A stretch of DNA of 64,000 nucleotides, from positions 67,727 to 131,726 of the forward strand of contig JBKEEF010000013.1 of assembly GCA_047975765.1 (NCBI GenBank). Direction: 5' to 3'. Position 1 is the stretch's first letter. Each line of letters starts with the position of its first letter. This document shows positions 6,536 through 49,549 of the stretch, one piece after another. The notes under the pieces were generated by a model. The model did not search any database, had not been told where the DNA came from, and worked only from the letters and a program-made list of their open reading frames with translations. The position numbers and the translations under genes were made by a program. This DNA is from Alphaproteobacteria bacterium (GTDB lineage Bacteria > Pseudomonadota > Alphaproteobacteria > RF32 > CAG-239).

Positions 6536-8293
6536 TTAAGGACAGCTTGAACTAGAACAAGATGTCGCTTGATACGCAGGGGTTCCTGTAGAATATGAAT
6601 TTTTACAAATTACTGTATTTCCTGAACTTGGTGCATTTCCCGTTAATGATACAGAACCTGAGAACTGAGCAGTTCCACATAGATAAACAACAGCATTTGT
6701 TGATTTCGGAGTAACAACAGAGCTTCCGTATACTTTTGCATCACCTTGTACATAAAAACCTTTTCCTCCTATCACTGCATTTCCATATACTTCAGCATTA
6801 CCTTGTACATGTGCACTCTCATAAAGTTTTGCAGAACCGTGAACTTTTGCACTTCCACTTACTTCTGCATTACCAAGAATTGTTGCATTCTCATAAACTT
6901 CTCCAAGATATGTAATTCTGCCACAAAGAACTTCTGTTGTAGAACCATAACCTGTGATACCACATCCCATTGTCGCATTTCCGTATATTTTTGGGTTGTT
7001 TGTTGAACCAGCACTTCCAGACCCCCCTAATCCAGCACCAGCATAGATTTGGGCGTTACCATATGCTTCTCCTGCAATAGATATTCTTGCTGCCCAAGAT
7101 GTAGCAGAAGCTGCTCTATCATCACTAGGGTGATGTTTGTAGCCGTGGAATATTGCATTTCCATATACTTTTCCTGCGTAGATTTTTGATCCACCATAAA
7201 TTTTCGCATCACCATATACTTCAGCTGTGTTAGCAACTATTGTTACATTTCCGTAAGAGTCATCTCCATCACCAATTGGTCCGTTTGGTCCACCATAAAC
7301 TTGTGCATTTCCGTAGACTTTTGCCTCTCCAAACACAATTGCACAGCCATAACTATCACAGCCAACCCAAGAATTACCCTCTTGAGATAAGTTGCTTTCA
7401 CTTTCTACATAACCACCTAAATCACCATACTTAACATTGCCGAAGTTTTTAACAGCTTTAATTCTTTTGAATTTTTCTTTGTAATATTCATATGTTACTG
7501 GTGCAAAGTCATTTTGCATGATGACATATTTTTTAGTAGTGCTACAGCTACAAGTAGCCTCTGTTGCATTTGCAATTGTCCAGTCGCCAGCCACCCCACC
7601 AATTTCACTTGCACAGATTGCTGTTGTTTTTGTACAGGCAGCCTTACAACTTGTATATTTAGTACCTTGAGTATCTGTACAAGACTTTGCCCCTGTATCA
7701 CCGCCATTATCACACTTCATAAAAGTAGTATTACATGAACAAGAAGCAAATTTATCTTTTCCATCATTACAAACAGTTCCAACACCAATTTGATCGCTTG
7801 AACAAACATCATATCCAGTAGGACATGAACAAGTGTCATAGAGTATTTTAAGTGAACTATTAGGACCACCATCAGGATTGTTATTACATTGGTTTCCAGT
7901 TAATTGTTTTGGAGAAGTACAAGTGAGGGAACTCCATTTATAGGTGCTTTCATTACATCCACAATTTTCATATTTTCCACCGCATTGCTCACCTGTTAAA
8001 CTTTTTCCGCCTGTACAATTTGTAGCATCATATTTAAATTTTGCATCACAAGCACACGTTTTTCCATAAGTAGGATCCGTTGGGCAAATATCTTTTAGGG
8101 CTTTTCCCTGAGCAGTGCAATCCTTGCTCGTATATTTATAACCACCAAGTTGACAAGGTTTTTGGTTGCCAACTGTTGCAGGGGTATCCTCTTTGTCAAT
8201 AAACCAAACACGCGCATACGAATTATCTATGTTGATGAATGTTAAAATAAAGAGAGAAAATATCCCTAAAATAAAAATATAGCGTTTTTTCAT
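6536..8293 (-). CDS. secreted cysteine-rich protein with C-terminal hexapeptide (YGNA-type) beta-solenoid-like repeats
   Basis: Signal peptide MKKRYIFILGIFSLFILTFINIDNSYA. The N-terminal half is rich in Cys, Thr and Gly. The C-terminal half has a 6-residue periodicity (AKVHGS AKLYES AHVQGN AEVYGN AVIGGK). Confidence 0.6.
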   Translation of the reverse strand: MKKRYIFILGIFSLFILTFINIDNSYARVWFIDKEDTPATVGNQKPCQLGGYKYTSKDCTAQGKALKDICPTDPTYGKTCACDAKFKYDATNCTGGKSLTGEQCGGKYENCGCNESTYKWSSLTCTSPKQLTGNQCNNNPDGGPNSSLKILYDTCSCPTGYDVCSSDQIGVGTVCNDGKDKFASCSCNTTFMKCDNGGDTGAKSCTDTQGTKYTSCKAACTKTTAICASEIGGVAGDWTIANATEATCSCSTTKKYVIMQNDFAPVTYEYYKEKFKRIKAVKNFGNVKYGDLGGYVESESNLSQEGNSWVGCDSYGCAIVFGEAKVYGNAQVYGGPNGPIGDGDDSYGNVTIVANTAEVYGDAKIYGGSKIYAGKVYGNAIFHGYKHHPSDDRAASATSWAARISIAGEAYGNAQIYAGAGLGGSGSAGSTNNPKIYGNATMGCGITGYGSTTEVLCGRITYLGEVYENATILGNAEVSGSAKVHGSAKLYESAHVQGNAEVYGNAVIGGKGFYVQGDAKVYGSSVVTPKSTNAVVYLCGTAQFSGSVSLTGNAPSSGNTVICKNSYSTGTPAYQATSCSSSSCP

Positions 8294-8413
8294 GATGGTA
8301 TTCCTTAGTGATTTAAGAATCTAAAAAAATAATACTCATTCAACCAATTATATAATAAATATTTTTTTACTACAATAAAAATTAAATATGAGATTATGAA
8401 GATTTTATAATCA

Positions 8414-30037: not shown

Positions 30038-30114
30038 GGGGGTGTAGCTCAGTTGGTTAGAGTGCTTGCCTGTCACGCAAGAAGTCGCGGGTTCGAGCCC
30101 CGTCACTCCCGCCA
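30038..30114 (+). tRNA. tRNA-Asp (anticodon GTC)
   Basis: 77-nt cloverleaf folded by hand: GGGGGTG acceptor stem, anticodon loop CTGTCAC, T-loop TTCGAGC, encoded CCA. Confidence 0.9.
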
Positions 30115-30147: not shown

Positions 30148-31296
30148 TCATTCTGACTTTTTATTTTTCTCATTCTGACTTTTTACATATTCAACTAATT
30201 TATTTGTTGCAGTAAGTCCTATTTTTTCAGTTGGGCTTTTGTATGTGCTATTAAACATTTTTTCGCTTTCGTGACCTGTTATTACGATTGCAGCAGCACT
30301 TGTGACACCAGCTTCTATATATGCAGTGCTTCCAGAATGTCGCATTAGTCTGAAGGTATAGTTAAACCCTAGTTCTTGACAAACATTTCTAAAGTAATCT
30401 TGAAAACGTCTGACTGTGAAATCTCCAAAATCATCACAAATGATGAAATCTTTTTTAGATAATATTTCTCTTTCCAGATGTTTTGGTACAGGAAGAATTA
30501 CTTTCTTGCCTAGTCTTTCCATTTTGTTTTGAATTATGCTAAAGAAATAATGGCCATCTTTTTTGTAAAGGTCATCTTTTCTTAGTTTTAACACATCAGC
30601 TGGCCTTTGAGCAAAATATAAATCAAGTTCAGTTCCTAGCGCTATTGCTCTATATGCTTCCGCTTTGTTTTTATATTTTTCATCTTCAGCCATTTCTTTA
30701 GCTTTATTAATAATTGCATGAACATCTTCAATTGGAATATATAGTTTTTCTGGTTTTTTTCTTCTTATTCTCATATTCTCAAAAGGATTTTTCTTTGAAA
30801 GTCTTTCTTTTCTTAGTCCAAAATTGTATATTAACCTTAGAAAATCCATACAGTTTTTAGCCCATCTTTCTTTTATTTCTTCAACCAGATTTTCATATAG
30901 TTTATATGCGATGTCATAATTGAATAAATCTAAAGGAGTGTCGCTTAACATTACTCCTTTTTTGTTTTTCTTTTTTGAAAGAATTTTATAAGCATTTTCA
31001 TAATCTTTCTTTGTTCTTGCTGCTAAATCTTTGTAAAAACGGCTATCAATATATATTGTCCAGAGATAGGATAGAGATTTATTGATGATTAGATCTTTTT
31101 TGTTTCTAAATTCTTTAATCTCTTTATTTAGTTTTTCAGCTTTTGCGTATGCTTCCCACTTTCCAGAGCCAAGTGGAATTGACTTTCTTATTTCTAAACC
31201 TTCAGGAACAAGGCGAGCAGGCATAACGAAGTAATAAGATATTACTCCGTTAGCAAGTTTCTTTTCTTGAACATATTTAGGTTTATCTCTTTTCAT
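30148..31296 (-). CDS. int: tyrosine-type site-specific integrase
   Basis: 382 aa. The C-terminal catalytic region contains LMRHSGSTAYIEAGV and HESEKMFNSTY (R-H-R-Y type). Confidence 0.9.
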   Translation of the reverse strand: MKRDKPKYVQEKKLANGVISYYFVMPARLVPEGLEIRKSIPLGSGKWEAYAKAEKLNKEIKEFRNKKDLIINKSLSYLWTIYIDSRFYKDLAARTKKDYENAYKILSKKKNKKGVMLSDTPLDLFNYDIAYKLYENLVEEIKERWAKNCMDFLRLIYNFGLRKERLSKKNPFENMRIRRKKPEKLYIPIEDVHAIINKAKEMAEDEKYKNKAEAYRAIALGTELDLYFAQRPADVLKLRKDDLYKKDGHYFFSIIQNKMERLGKKVILPVPKHLEREILSKKDFIICDDFGDFTVRRFQDYFRNVCQELGFNYTFRLMRHSGSTAYIEAGVTSAAAIVITGHESEKMFNSTYKSPTEKIGLTATNKLVEYVKSQNEKNKKSE

Positions 31297-35829: not shown

Positions 35830-36897
35830 CTAAACTTCTGTAATCCTTACACCTCGATTTTGGTTTTCAGCAAAAAGTAAAATGTTGCCGATATGTCCAG
35901 CCCTAGCGTTAGCTCTAACTTCCGACAATATTGTTTCGTAGCTGACAATCTGATTCGACACCCCTTTTAGGATTCGGCAGAATATTTCTACGCTTTTAGT
36001 TCTCTCGATTTTATCAAAAGACTTAATGAAATAGTTCAAACAGTCCACCACTTCATAAGGTTTTAACATTGTACGAGTTAGTAAGAATTCCATGTCATTT
36101 AGGAACTCGAAACGATCGACACTTGTGTTTTTTGCTATAGTTGGGAGTTTTTCATCTAAAGCATGGTTTACAACTGATTTAATTATACCGCCGATTTCTT
36201 GTCTGGCTTTGGATGATAAAACAATCTCACGCTTGCTACTTGGCTTTTTACGTAAGTGCGTAGAGACTTTAACTAGGTCATTGCTTGTAGAATAAGAGCC
36301 TGTTTTACGAATACTAGGGAGTACTTCTTCACATACCCAATCAGTAAATGCCTCAGCCTCTGGTTTTCGGCTTTGAAAAGCAACTTTATAAACGTTCTTC
36401 TCGTTTATAAATGAAACTGATTGAGTTCTACCTAAGTTGTCGATGGTGTCCACAGTACGGACGCCATCTTTTAAACGGGCAATAACATTGCGATTGTTTT
36501 TGATTGATAAAGCTTCACACACATCCACACCGCAAAAGTATGGTTCGTTGTTAACTAGCTCAGCTCTTACTTGATTGTTTTTGAAATTAAATATAGTTAA
36601 TGAATTTGTCATTTTGTATACTCCTTGAATGATTAGGAGCAGTCCGAAACGACATTTTTCTAAGAATGGCGTCCCGAAGTTAGAAAACCCGTATTCAAGG
36701 AAACGAGCAACATAGCCTTTAGCTTTCGCTTGGACATAGCTAAGTTCTTCGGGACATAAAAAATTCGCCATATAATTAACGATTGGCGATTGTCCGCCTT
36801 GAATAAAGGAGTTTCTACGCTCCATTACAGCATTTACTGTAACAACTCCATTGTATCTATATTTAGAATCTATTGTCAACATATTTTTATTTCTCAT
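35830..36897 (-). CDS. Bro-N domain protein (putative antirepressor) with N-terminal extension
   Basis: The central FNFKNNQVRAELVNNEPYFCGVDVCEALSIKN...KPEAEAFTDWVCEEVLPSIRKTG matches the Bro-N consensus. A possible internal start is MTNSL. Confidence 0.7.
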   Translation of the reverse strand: MRNKNMLTIDSKYRYNGVVTVNAVMERRNSFIQGGQSPIVNYMANFLCPEELSYVQAKAKGYVARFLEYGFSNFGTPFLEKCRFGLLLIIQGVYKMTNSLTIFNFKNNQVRAELVNNEPYFCGVDVCEALSIKNNRNVIARLKDGVRTVDTIDNLGRTQSVSFINEKNVYKVAFQSRKPEAEAFTDWVCEEVLPSIRKTGSYSTSNDLVKVSTHLRKKPSSKREIVLSSKARQEIGGIIKSVVNHALDEKLPTIAKNTSVDRFEFLNDMEFLLTRTMLKPYEVVDCLNYFIKSFDKIERTKSVEIFCRILKGVSNQIVSYETILSEVRANARAGHIGNILLFAENQNRGVRITEV

Positions 36898-39378: not shown

Positions 39379-39616
39379 TCATCTTCAATATCGTTTGCCT
39401 TAAAATTCTCATCTCATACCTAACTTCAGGAACATCACTTTCTTTTTCGATTTTTAGGCAATAACCAATAATTTTATGTAATTCATTCATAACCCACCCC
39501 ATTCACCAGTTAAAATCCCGATTGTTAAAACACTTCCCCAGACGATTATTGTTGCAATAATCAACATGACTGAAATTGGGTGTGACAGGTCCATATTTGA
39601 AAGAAATTGTTTCATT

Positions 39617-39928
39617 CTAATTCTCCAAAATTTCTTTGATTAAAATTCTTGCAAGCTCTGTTAAATCATCTCGGATTTTGTCCTCGTGGATAAAGTCTTC
39701 AAAACAGCCACTATTGTCAGACAATAGTTTTTCAATAGCTTTATCTTCGACTTCTTCCTCGGAAAGTTCATAGGGAAAGTATTTGTTGCTATCTCTGTCA
39801 AAGATCATTCCTTTCTTTTCAGGTTTGAAATCCCTTACAAAAGAATTGTTTATATTGAGATTTTCCTTCACTCCTTTTTCGAAAGAAATGAACGCTGGTA
39901 TGTTTCTTAATTGTTGAATGATTTCCAT
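39617..39928 (-). CDS. hypothetical phage protein (first gene of the leftward early operon)
   Basis: 103 aa, acidic. Confidence 0.35.
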   Translation of the reverse strand: MEIIQQLRNIPAFISFEKGVKENLNINNSFVRDFKPEKKGMIFDRDSNKYFPYELSEEEVEDKAIEKLLSDNSGCFEDFIHEDKIRDDLTELARILIKEILEN

Positions 39929-39957: not shown

Positions 39958-40012
39958 TAGATTATGATATTCGTAATTTAATGTCAATAATAAAATTATT
40001 AAAATCGTAATT
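39958..40012. promoter_or_regulatory. putative OL operator cluster (2 x TCGTAAT sites)
   Basis: ATATTCGTAATTTAAT and AAAATCGTAATTATTT share the core found three times in the cI/cro intergenic region. Confidence 0.4.
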
Positions 40013-40168
40013 ATTTAAACATGGAGCATTCAACCGATTGATTTTCAATGAAAGATTTTTTAATTTTGATATGAGATAATGCCAATTATGACGAATATTT
40101 CATGATTAAATTTGAAATTGTGCATAAAAAAAAGAGCCTTAACTGGCTCTTTTTGGGTAAATGTTATA

Positions 40169-40645
40169 TTATTTTTTATCTTTATGAATTGATTTAGATT
40201 TTATTCTTGCTACCCCAGATATTACAGAAACAGTTGCTAAAATTGATAAGAGAACTTTTACAATCCAAGATTTATCTAAATAAATTGCATACGATGAGAG
40301 TAATAAAACTCCTATTACTATTATGAAACCCATTATTGTGCCAAATAAGCGATATTGGTTATCTTTCATTTGAAAAGTATGTGAAAAGTTTTGTTCTTTT
40401 TCTGCCATCGAAATAATTCTATCCATAGATCCTGGACATGCTTTTTCATAATCTGCTAATATTTCTGGTGGAGGTAATGGGCCTCTATGAATGGATTGAC
40501 TCGTCTGTTCAACTCTTACAGTCAACTTTGGGTCTTTACTTAAAGAATCAGCACCACTTAAAAGCCTTTTTTTATTATCTTCAATATTTTTCTTTTGAGT
40601 TATATTTGTCAAAACACTTTTATTTGTTTTTTTGTTCTTTTTCAT
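40169..40645 (-). CDS. membrane protein encoded downstream of cI (lysogeny operon moron)
   Basis: 158 aa. Basic N-terminus and two C-terminal transmembrane helices. Same strand as cI, upstream of the putative OL. Confidence 0.45.
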   Translation of the reverse strand: MKKNKKTNKSVLTNITQKKNIEDNKKRLLSGADSLSKDPKLTVRVEQTSQSIHRGPLPPPEILADYEKACPGSMDRIISMAEKEQNFSHTFQMKDNQYRLFGTIMGFIIVIGVLLLSSYAIYLDKSWIVKVLLSILATVSVISGVARIKSKSIHKDKK

Positions 40646-40796
40646 AATTTACCATACTAGATTTGAGGTAGCTTCCTGTTTTAGCCCAATAGCTATAAAT
40701 ATTACTCTTTGCTGAGTTATTCTCTATTACTCTTGGTATGTAAGATGTAATTCCATATGCAATACCTAATAAAAAGGCTTTGGTTTTTGTTTTCAT
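40620..40796 (-). CDS. small single-transmembrane protein between cI and the membrane protein
   Basis: 58 aa, MKTKTKAFLLGIAYGITSYI..., with a strong AGGAG RBS 7 nt upstream. Below the ORF-track length cut-off. Confidence 0.3.
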   Translation of the reverse strand: MKTKTKAFLLGIAYGITSYIPRVIENNSAKSNIYSYWAKTGSYLKSSMVNYEKEQKNK

Positions 40797-40929
40797 TTCT
40801 CACTCCTGATGGTTAATGAAATAACCTAACTATGTTATTATCACATAAAATATATAAATATACAATCAATAAAAAAGTTCATAATAGAATTGTTGATTTT
40901 TTTCAAGTAAAAATTTATTAAAATATTTT

Positions 40930-41607
40930 CTATAACTCTTTCATTTTGATTTGGTAATCAATCACCACAGCAGCGATATCATATTCTTTGTCGTCGGGGT
41001 GGAGAATGATATTGTTTATTGTTGGGTTGGTCGATTCGGCAACCAGAACAATTGTGTTGTTATCTGTTTTCATATATCTTTTGACAGTAGCTTCATATAG
41101 TCCGTCAGAGCTTTTTCGATATGCAATGATGTAGTCGCCATTTTCAATCTTGCCGTCATAATCATCTATGCAACAACATATAAGCGTTGTTTTTTCTGGC
41201 GGAAAGATTTTATTCATCGAATCGCCACGAACTCCTAGAGCGAAAATTCTTTTGTTTTTGAGGTTATCATTAACAGGATAATATACTTCTTCCCATTCAT
41301 CTTCAGGGAGTTGCGTCGCTTCATTCCATGCACCAGCTTGAACAAAACCGATTTTTGAAATTGTTGTTATTTGATTATTATTTTCATAGTCTAATTCTTT
41401 GGTAACACCTGATATATATTTTGTAAAGTTTTCTAAATTTATGTCTAAAAATTTAGCAAAAGAAACGATTTCTTTTTGCTGAATTTCCCTAATACCTTTA
41501 ATTATAGCACTTAAATGGGGTGGGGCAATGTTAACATAATTAGCTAATTCTTTTTGTGTTTTTCCAAGATCTTTCAATCTATCTTTTATAAACTCATATT
41601 TTGTCAT
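40930..41607 (-). CDS. cI: CI-like repressor (HTH_XRE plus S24 LexA-like peptidase)
   Basis: N-terminal HTH (KTQKELANYVNIAPPHLSAIIKG). C-terminal S24 with ALGVRGDSM and a Lys further downstream. Confidence 0.85.
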   Translation of the reverse strand: MTKYEFIKDRLKDLGKTQKELANYVNIAPPHLSAIIKGIREIQQKEIVSFAKFLDINLENFTKYISGVTKELDYENNNQITTISKIGFVQAGAWNEATQLPEDEWEEVYYPVNDNLKNKRIFALGVRGDSMNKIFPPEKTTLICCCIDDYDGKIENGDYIIAYRKSSDGLYEATVKRYMKTDNNTIVLVAESTNPTINNIILHPDDKEYDIAAVVIDYQIKMKEL

Positions 41608-41643: not shown

Positions 41644-41715
41644 CGATTATCGTAAAAAGTAAATTATTATTATCGTAATTTTTAGATTGACTTGTTATTA
41701 TGATTATCGTAATAT
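41644..41715. promoter_or_regulatory. OR operators (3 x ATTATCGTAA) with rightward promoter PR (TTGACT-N17-TAATAT)
   Basis: Repeats at 41646, 41669 and 41703. The third overlaps the -10 of the promoter that reads into cro. Confidence 0.55.
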
Positions 41716-41747: not shown

Positions 41748-41948
41748 TTGAAGAAAATATCAGAAATAATAAAGGATTTTGGGGGATTAGCGGAGATGTC
41801 AAGAACTCTTGATGTTGCAATTTCTACAATTCAATATTGGGAAGAAAAAAATAAAATTCCTTATTGGAGAATAGAAGTCGTTTTAAAGAAAGCAAAAGAG
41901 CTTGGCTTGTCAATTAATGAAAAATCAGAAGACGAAAGTGCTGCATAG
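41748..41948 (+). CDS. cro: Cro-like small DNA-binding protein
   Basis: 66 aa, TTG start with a GGAG RBS, divergent from cI. Confidence 0.5.
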   Translation: MKKISEIIKDFGGLAEMSRTLDVAISTIQYWEEKNKIPYWRIEVVLKKAKELGLSINEKSEDESAA

Positions 41949-41966
41949 CATTGTCGTCTTTTTTTG
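41929..41966 (+). terminator. tR1-like hairpin plus T7 immediately after cro
   Basis: Imperfect stem AGACGAAAGTGC / GCATTGTCGTCT followed by TTTTTTT. Confidence 0.4.
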
Positions 41967-41979
41967 TAGGAGAAATAAC

Positions 41980-42270
41980 ATGAATGAAAAAGAAATAAGA
42001 AAAGAATTAGTACTTTTGAATCTACAACGTGATAATCCGCTTTGTATTAGAGAGCTGAAAGATTTTGAAAAATATATTATGGGAAATGAAATAGAGGATG
42101 CGTCAACACCCTCTAAAGCTTGGGAAAAAAGAAATCCAGAGTTAGCAAAAGAAGCAAAAGAAAGAGCTAGAAAAAAGACTCTTCGTTTTCTTCTTGATGT
42201 TGGCGGCCGTGATTTTGTTCGCTTTTGTGGTTCTCATATTCGCAAAGGACATTGTAATGATGCTTCTTAA
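41980..42270 (+). CDS. hypothetical phage protein
   Basis: 96 aa from the ATG at 41980 with an AGGAGA RBS. Confidence 0.35.
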   Translation: MNEKEIRKELVLLNLQRDNPLCIRELKDFEKYIMGNEIEDASTPSKAWEKRNPELAKEAKERARKKTLRFLLDVGGRDFVRFCGSHIRKGHCNDAS

Positions 42271-43001
42271 TGTAATTAAACAAAAAGAATTCATCTTTAA
42301 CAGTTTCTTGCAAGTCGCGGATTCTTTGCTTTGTTTCATAAAGCTCAGTTTCAAGTTTTGCTATCTTGTCATTAAGCTTCATTATTTCAGTCCCTTTATC
42401 GTCCATAACCAATTTCCTTTTGTAGTTTTTACAAAAGGTATCGCTAAACAAAACATGAGTCAATTCTAAAAGGAGATAAAAATGGAAAACAGAACAAAAA
42501 ATAATATCAAAACGATTTATGAAATTTCTCCTACTTTTTTTCTGAAACAAGCCGAAAGAGCCGGAGAAAAACTCAACGAAGCTTTGAAGCTAGGGCTGAT
42601 TGTTTCAGCAAATGACAACATGTTAGAGGACATCATTGCGTAACTTATGATGTTCACAGGGTGTGAAAGTGGCTAGCGTCCTGTTCCTGAAAACAAAATC
42701 TGTTCTGCTATTTAGTTAAAACTCTTTTGAGCATTTGAGGAAAGAACAGAGCCACATTTTTTTTAATTTTATATTAGAGGAAAAGATTATGGCACGAAAG
42801 GAATCAAAGACTTTTATTCTCAATCTTCTTTCTGGAAGACACAGAAGAGTGAAAAAGAATGAAGTTTGTTGTGTCTGCGAACAGGTGAATATTGAAGGTG
42901 CGATTGATACTATCGTTTACATGATAAGCGGGCATTCATATTTGGTACAAGACACAAAAAAAAACAGTTGAAGAGAAAATTATAGTTAAAGGAGAAGAAT
43001 A

Positions 43002-49473: not shown

Positions 49474-49549
49474 TGCGAGATGGAGAAGATGTTATCTCGT
49501 TCCGCTCATAACGGAAAAATCGTAGGTTCAAATCCTACTCTCGCAACCA
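49474..49549 (+). tRNA. phage-encoded tRNA with CAT anticodon (Met or Ile2)
   Basis: Manual cloverleaf: acceptor TGCGAGA/TCTCGCA, D-stem GAGA/TCTC, anticodon stem TTCCG/CGGAA with loop CTCATAA, T-arm GTAGG-TTCAAAT-CCTAC, discriminator A, encoded CCA. Only position 19 is atypical. Confidence 0.6.

Follow-up and report, generated by a model that had tools for sequence, protein, structure and literature searches.

The repressor-proximal part of a prophage carried by the 64,000-nt stretch of DNA analysed here (the window) contains a cassette of two overlapping genes, encoding a small protein of 58 aa (ORF58) and a predicted inner-membrane protein of 158 aa from family DUF2335 (ORF158). Relatives of the small protein were found to be near-obligatory companions of DUF2335, always encoded directly upstream, which makes ORF58 better described as a conserved DUF2335 partner than as an independent membrane peptide. 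The cassette is best explained as a translationally coupled two-gene 'moron' of the immunity region; the mechanism preferred here, to which a probability of roughly 0.4 is given, is that it works as an exclusion module by analogy with abortive-infection (Abi) or toxin-antitoxin (TA) systems. Many functions in phage defence and host conversion are encoded by prophage genes that adjoin the repressor, and homologous pairs were present in prophages of tractable hosts, namely Salmonella, Klebsiella, E. coli and Staphylococcus.

The cassette and its prophage setting

The window carries a lambda-like prophage integrated at tRNA-Asp, in a low-GC MAG labelled Alphaproteobacteria by NCBI. The tRNA-Asp gene (30038-30114, plus strand) directly adjoins a tyrosine integrase gene (int; 30148-31296, minus strand), and their junction is likely to be the attachment site and the left prophage end. 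A second tRNA gene, for tRNA-Met (49474-49549), was located inside the prophage. The early-left operon runs leftwards from position 39928 on the minus strand and includes genes for a RecE-like exonuclease, RecT, an Ant-like protein and the integrase. The cI-type repressor (40930-41607, minus strand) displayed HTH_3 (4e-10) and Peptidase_S24 (6e-13) domains and is opposed by a cro-like gene (41748-41948, plus strand) across a spacer in which three exact TTACGATAAT repeats form the OR-like operators (41646-41713, minus strand). Downstream of the cro-like gene (41902-42550), gene calls were ambiguous, long ORFs of 122 aa (plus), 127 aa (minus) and 91 aa (plus) overlapping there on opposite strands.

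An OL/PL-like region (39961-40011, minus strand), oriented into the early-left operon, combined operator-like sites at 39967 and 40001 with a promoter-like sequence, TTGACA-15-CATAAT (39961-39987). Just downstream of PL, a 42-aa strongly hydrophobic ORF of the early-left operon (39487-39615, minus strand; containing ISVMLIIATIIVWGSVLTIGILTG) may encode a small membrane peptide used in the lytic programme. The motif ATTACGAWWWT occurred four times in 64 kb, against 0.57 copies expected by chance, with two copies in the cI-cro spacer (41669, 41703) and two just upstream of the early-left operon (39967, 40001). Because all four copies fall in these two regions, the slot between cI and OL/PL, in which an earlier note on this DNA had placed two membrane proteins, is considered real. 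No DNA match for the immunity region was obtained among 50,697 phage records.

Both genes of that slot were recovered on the minus strand as described earlier, ORF58 at 40620-40796 and ORF158 at 40169-40645, and the cassette displayed a slightly lower GC content (29 % versus 33 %). The strong ribosome-binding site attributed to the 58-aa gene was confirmed as a Shine-Dalgarno sequence AGGAG (40803-40807) located 6 nt ahead of the ATG at 40796. ORF158 starts at 40645, within ORF58. This overlap of 26 nt, together with the absence of a good ribosome-binding site proper to ORF158, suggests that the two genes are translationally coupled.

The 133-nt spacer between cI and ORF58 (40797-40929, minus strand) contained the Shine-Dalgarno site and a candidate promoter. 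The latter, read from the sequence, consists of an extended -10 element (TGTGATAAT, 40837-40845) with TTGTAT (40860-40865) 17 nt further upstream; no promoter was called in the spacer by a consensus scan, and the extended -10 element stays a weak candidate. The earlier note had named a terminator between cI and the cassette as evidence against its view, and neither a terminator nor a stable RNA fold (z = +0.5) was encountered in this spacer. An intrinsic terminator was found instead at the 3' end of the cassette (40121-40154, minus strand), in which a stem of 10 bp with the core GAGCC/GGCTC encloses a 6-nt loop and is followed by U8. Its predicted RNA fold reached -13.1 kcal/mol (z = -4.6), and 0 of 200 shuffled sequences folded as well. 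This terminator had been overlooked by the consensus scan because its stem reaches into the T-run and, given the A-run on the other side, it is potentially bidirectional.

Expression of the cassette in the lysogen, as anticipated in the earlier note, is likely since it lies on the cI strand, is reachable from the cI promoter and no hairpin follows cI. Being located upstream of the PL-like promoter, it is not transcribable within the early-left lytic operon. The architecture thus suggests that the lysogen transcribes the pair from the cI promoter by read-through, from a weak promoter belonging to the pair or from both, and the terminator closing the cassette would insulate the pair from PL.

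Family DUF2335 and its small partner

ORF158 belongs to Pfam family DUF2335 (PF10097; 47 bits against a cut-off of 25, E = 2.4e-12, residues 58-95) and matched phrog_3996 (3e-25), listed in PHROGs as 'membrane protein' in the category 'moron, auxiliary metabolic gene and host takeover'. The two transmembrane (TM) segments announced previously agree with this membership, with the AlphaFold2 helices and with two hydrophobic segments, at which Kyte-Doolittle scores in 19-aa windows exceed 1.6 (residues 97-108 and 125-131) and between which only the very short LDKS loop is found. In the AlphaFold2 model (pLDDT 74.6), helices 73-122 and 126-157 were packed together, the first of these uniting the conserved block and TM1 in one long helix. 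Since the N-terminal region and the C-tail are both basic, an N-in/C-in hairpin is predicted, which implies that only about four residues would be periplasmic and that the conserved residues would all be cytoplasmic.

Alignment of ORF158 with 14 homologs revealed an invariant G-P-L-P-P-P ... R-I-x-x-M-A-E block, with G55, P56, L57, P58, P60, R76, I77, M80, A81 and E82 as invariant columns; the N-terminus MKKNK was common to ORF158 and its closest homolog, P0002. ORF158 carries this block as GPLPPP...RIISMAEKEQ in its cytoplasmic N-terminal part, ahead of the TM hairpin and a basic tail, and it displayed the complete family signature (G-P-L-P-P-P ... Y ... G ... R-I-I-x-M-A-E, then two TM helices). 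The GPLPPP stretch (40466-40483, residues 55-60 of ORF158) was nearly invariant across DUF2335. PPP runs are ribosome-stalling motifs and, purely as an idea, translation of DUF2335 may depend on EF-P through this run.

Family DUF2335 was found to be very large, with 16,864 representatives of 50 % identity clusters at E <= 1e-3, and extended to CPR bacteria, enterobacteria and Staphylococcus. Neither a solved structure nor an informative structural neighbour was found for it. Natural fusions between DUF2335 and its partner were not found either, long homologs only adding acidic low-complexity N-termini. A literature search under PF10097, COG5346 and phrog_3996 yielded no functional study of DUF2335, the sole phenotype on record being the reduced potato maceration of a Dickeya zeae DUF2335 deletion mutant (PMC8809351). 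The 'DUF2335 phospholipase' toxin domain mentioned in two T6SS effector papers (10.1101/2023.07.16.549128; PMC6267618) was set aside as incompatible with a two-TM family, and the name is probably a slip for DUF2235.

In four unrelated DUF2335 phages, a small ORF was located just upstream of the DUF2335 gene and had a W-x2-[VI]-G-x2-[LIM] motif in common with ORF58. A further 80 DUF2335 loci were gathered, drawn from viral contigs and from genomes sampled at one per species, and a profile HMM of the partner, for which 18 small ORFs served as seed, was run over the 12,393 ORFs on both strands of 88 loci. Every match was situated directly upstream of DUF2335 and on the same strand. The single nominal off-target was itself followed by another DUF2335 copy, which leaves zero true off-targets. 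After iteration of the HMM, the partner was detected at E < 0.01 in 76 loci, hence in at least 76 of the 86 loci with upstream sequence (two of the 88 had none), and seven more displayed the motif by eye, below the HMM threshold. These loci were distributed over phages and more than ten bacterial phyla. At the junction, the two genes mostly overlapped by 8-50 nt or were separated by less than 25 nt.

Partners consist of two helices with a C-terminal W-x2-[VT]-G motif. A reciprocal profile search of a large protein database retrieved 82 proteins of 53-107 aa, all designated 'hypothetical protein' or unnamed; in each of those examined (from Salmonella, Klebsiella, Staphylococcus, gut Firmicutes and Terriglobia) DUF2335 was the next gene. 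Two apparent orphan partners (loci L092 and L111) were rejected, their DUF2335 genes being intact and merely uncalled. Directly upstream of DUF2335 genes there is therefore a near-obligatory small helical protein. None of 26 partners matched a Pfam or NCBIfam model, and we could not find the family described in Pfam, NCBIfam or named PHROG entries, nor a model for it in the first two. DUF2335 is accordingly one half of a fixed two-gene unit rather than a lone membrane protein, the small partner sometimes remaining uncalled as a gene.

ORF58 was the sole match to the partner HMM among 1,283 six-frame ORFs of the window when the window and its closest relative were excluded from the profile; the score was modest (E = 1e-4, 18.3 bits). 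No Pfam or NCBIfam match was obtained for ORF58, a word-indexed homolog search with ORF58 alone as query returned nothing beyond ORF58 itself, and pairwise tblastn against phages gave nothing significant. One weak tblastn match, in Alteromonas P24, was situated just upstream of the DUF2335 gene of P24. ORF58 displayed an N-terminal F-L-x-G-h and a C-terminal W-x2-T-G-x2-L-K motif, with W37 and G41 conserved. AlphaFold2 (pLDDT 75) predicted helices at residues 3-23 and 27-57, the motif-bearing C-terminal helix reaching pLDDT 82-93. No recognisable DNA-binding or sensor domain was found in the partner.

The single TM segment formerly ascribed to ORF58 was not upheld. Its best 19-aa hydropathy window was 1.14; across the partner family the median best window was 0.78, and only three out of 64 members reached 1.6. 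In the family alignment the hydrophobic stretch fell on the conserved motif F-L-x-G-h-x-x-h-D-h, and most members have an amphipathic version of it. From its hydropathy, ORF58 is thus not convincingly a TM peptide. The ortholog from phage contig L005 attained 1.98, and membrane association of the ORF58/L005 subfamily is possible.

Genomic contexts of the pair

A survey of 854 neighbouring ORFs from 78 non-identical loci disclosed no conserved third gene beside the pair, no neighbour family being present in more than four of the 78. Synteny was shared by only three locus pairs, all close relatives. The pair is therefore autonomous, with neither a fixed third gene nor a fixed location. Its mobility is illustrated by locus L088, where partner and DUF2335 genes (7741-8411) form an insertion midway through a gene cluster for cobalamin biosynthesis. 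Chromosomal copies were encountered beside such housekeeping genes as cob genes, fusA, gyrA and tpiA. In locus L006 (1-10501), a DUF2335 pair with uncalled partner was surrounded by AAA_13, RnlB antitoxin, Abi_2 and DUF2971 genes, a neighbourhood which looks like a defence island.

Five distinct prophage slots were found to hold the pair. Besides the position after cI, shared by the window and L005, it was located between int and the convergent early-left operon in lambdoid prophages of Salmonella, and between tail-tube/chaperone genes and the tape-measure gene in Klebsiella and Acinetobacter phages, there beside variable pRha, KilA-N or HNH genes. In Staphylococcus it was found at the prophage end, behind the genes for holin and amidase, in an E. 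coli prophage it belonged to a BRO-N island, and in prophages of gut Firmicutes it was situated upstream of the terminase genes. Some phage copies displayed late-gene orientation, which makes expression during lytic growth possible there. Temperate phages of Proteobacteria, Firmicutes and Bacteroidota have captured the pair repeatedly in accessory slots.

The otherwise unrelated contig L005 displayed the same succession of cI, 58-aa gene, DUF2335 gene and terminator. Its repressor was of the S24 type (Pfam), and window and L005 had almost nothing in common except the pair, their repressors not being detectably similar. No homolog of the window cI was detected next to the pair elsewhere (phmmer). 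A promoter matching 11 of 12 consensus positions (TTGACA-16-TATTAT) occupied in L005 the same place as the candidate of the window, and promoter-like sites matching 9 of 12 positions preceded the pair in the Salmonella and Klebsiella prophages of L093 and L096. A hairpin equivalent to the cassette terminator was located immediately 3' of the pair in L005, L093, L096 and L100.

In many phages, a gene of the Ant, BRO-N, KilA-N, pRha or ORF6N type was encountered about 0.1-3 kb from the pair (L001, L003, L093, L096-L099, L104 and L105-L106, as well as the window at 35830-36897). This proximity could reflect shared hot-spot cargo or a functional link.

Candidate functions and known systems

In the preferred Abi/TA-like reading, ORF58 and ORF158 would associate with each other on the cytoplasmic side of the inner membrane, the partner binding the conserved cytoplasmic helix of DUF2335 and holding or controlling the hairpin; the contact would be expected between the C-terminal W-x2-V-G helix of the partner and the RIISMAEKEQ helix. 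A trigger, for instance infection by another phage, would release the hairpin, which would then perturb the membrane; the outcome would be an exclusion of the Abi or toxin-antitoxin kind, similar in logic to lambda RexA/RexB or to the gp30/gp31 pairs of mycobacteriophages and unrelated to both. This reading was favoured because of the near-obligatory pairing, the autonomy of the pair, its moron behaviour and its lysogen-compatible layout. A hint at defence came from the context of L006 and from the PHROGs moron and host-takeover category, and the mycobacteriophage pairs and the moron concept were taken as precedents. Several observations were counted against it: the absence of a PADLOC match, the housekeeping neighbours of many chromosomal copies, a partner devoid of recognisable DNA-binding or sensor domain, the weakness of the candidate promoter in the window and the late-gene orientation of some phage copies.

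The earlier note had gone further and taken position as a strong indication of superinfection-exclusion or abortive-infection factors. An exclusion or abortive-infection role may at most be suggested from the layout and distribution described above; the proteins displayed no homology to RexA/RexB, characterised Sie proteins or PADLOC components, and the pair also occurs in ordinary chromosomal contexts. It is a still more tentative proposal that partner and DUF2335 in general constitute an unrecognised, very widespread conflict module (Abi or TA-like), repeatedly taken up as lysogen-expressed phage cargo. If the pair proved to be a defence or TA-like module, annotation would become possible for more than 10,000 protein clusters; as a conflict module it would constitute a defence family not recognised before, in which the small protein would be a new regulator or sensor.

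A physiological membrane function, in which the pair would serve the envelope, stress physiology or host interaction and act in phages as a lysogenic-conversion fitness factor, appears rather unlikely. The maceration phenotype of the Dickeya zeae mutant (PMC8809351) is in line with such a role, as are the very large and taxonomically broad family (16,864 cluster representatives) and the ordinary metabolic neighbours at many loci. A housekeeping role accords less well with a location that is conserved only among close relatives, with repeated capture in phage accessory slots and with the defence-island-like context of at least one locus.

It was judged unlikely as well that the pair is a selfish TA-like addiction module with no anti-phage role, in which ORF158 would inhibit growth, ORF58 would neutralise it and the prophage or region would be stabilised. 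A small upstream gene overlapping a larger downstream gene, near-obligatory co-occurrence and arbitrary, non-syntenic locations, including the insertion in the cobalamin operon, would all suit an addiction module, and the layout resembles that of E. coli CptB/CptA (YgfY/YgfX). The partner nevertheless lacks the DNA-binding domain usual in type II antitoxins, and orphan partners were not encountered, since both candidates came down to the uncalled intact genes mentioned above.

Classical superinfection exclusion, with hairpin and partner blocking phage genome entry at the inner membrane in the manner of P22 SieA, HK97 gp15 or lactococcal Sie2009, seems improbable. Although the cassette is membrane-located, lysogen-oriented and adjacent to the repressor, a hairpin with only about four periplasmic residues and exclusively cytoplasmic conserved residues is poorly suited to this task, DUF2335 is found widely in CPR bacteria and at chromosomal sites outside phages, and no homology to a named Sie family was found in Pfam or PHROGs. 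The repressor-side slot itself has precedents among sie genes (PMC10883804, PMC11436027).

A holin/antiholin-like pair tuning lysis timing is highly improbable: the N-in/C-in two-TM hairpin and charged C-tail do recall class II holin topology, but the holin homology that the earlier note had named as counter-evidence was not found in Pfam or PHROGs, no endolysin gene adjoins the cassette, whose position is in the immunity region and upstream of PL, pair-bearing prophages of Staphylococcus and E. coli possess separate annotated holins, and a cytoplasmic N-terminal domain of 95 residues is atypical for holins.

The rexAB-like slot proposed earlier held as to position, strand and terminator, and not as to homology, neither RexA nor RexB being among the Pfam, PHROG and PADLOC matches of ORF58 and ORF158. 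Lambda rexAB ends in a terminator; like it, the cassette is encoded on the cI strand, fills the interval from cI to OL/PL and closes with a terminator, and forms a two-gene unit with one membrane protein that is presumably lysogen-expressed. RexB has four TM segments and RexA about 280 aa, in contrast to the two predicted TM segments of ORF158 and the 58 aa of its partner, and in the cassette the membrane gene is preceded and overlapped by the small one. E. coli CptB/CptA (YgfY/YgfX), a small soluble protein encoded upstream of an inner-membrane toxin of about 135 aa with two TM segments, offers an architectural analogy to the cassette, no homology being expected, and its TM hairpin is N-terminal where that of ORF158 is C-terminal. 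None of the component models of PADLOC-DB v2 matched ORF58 or ORF158; the best, CARF_TM (E = 0.11), covered the TM hairpin only, and SLATT_1 (E = 0.19) fell below the cut-off.

The mycobacteriophage pairs Sbash gp30/gp31 and Butters gp30/gp31 are lysogenically expressed, combine a cytoplasmic with a membrane protein and have been proposed to act at the membrane (PMC6426596, PMC7542560). The cassette follows the same cytoplasmic-plus-membrane logic with no detected homology to them, and is known from sequence alone whereas experimental exclusion data exist for the mycobacteriophage pairs. As for phage morons, conceived by Hendrix and Juhala as independent transcription units inserted in a phage genome (PMC3594210) and including HK97 gp15, the likeness comprises an own terminator, varied positions in unrelated phages, a lower GC content and, in relatives of the window, a clear promoter. 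It is less complete in the window itself, where the pair's own promoter is a weak candidate and expression may need transcripts that read through from the cI promoter. Lysogen-oriented membrane morons of the immunity region are an already known kind of arrangement, and the new, moderately interesting lead provided by this cassette is the near-obligatory partner of DUF2335.
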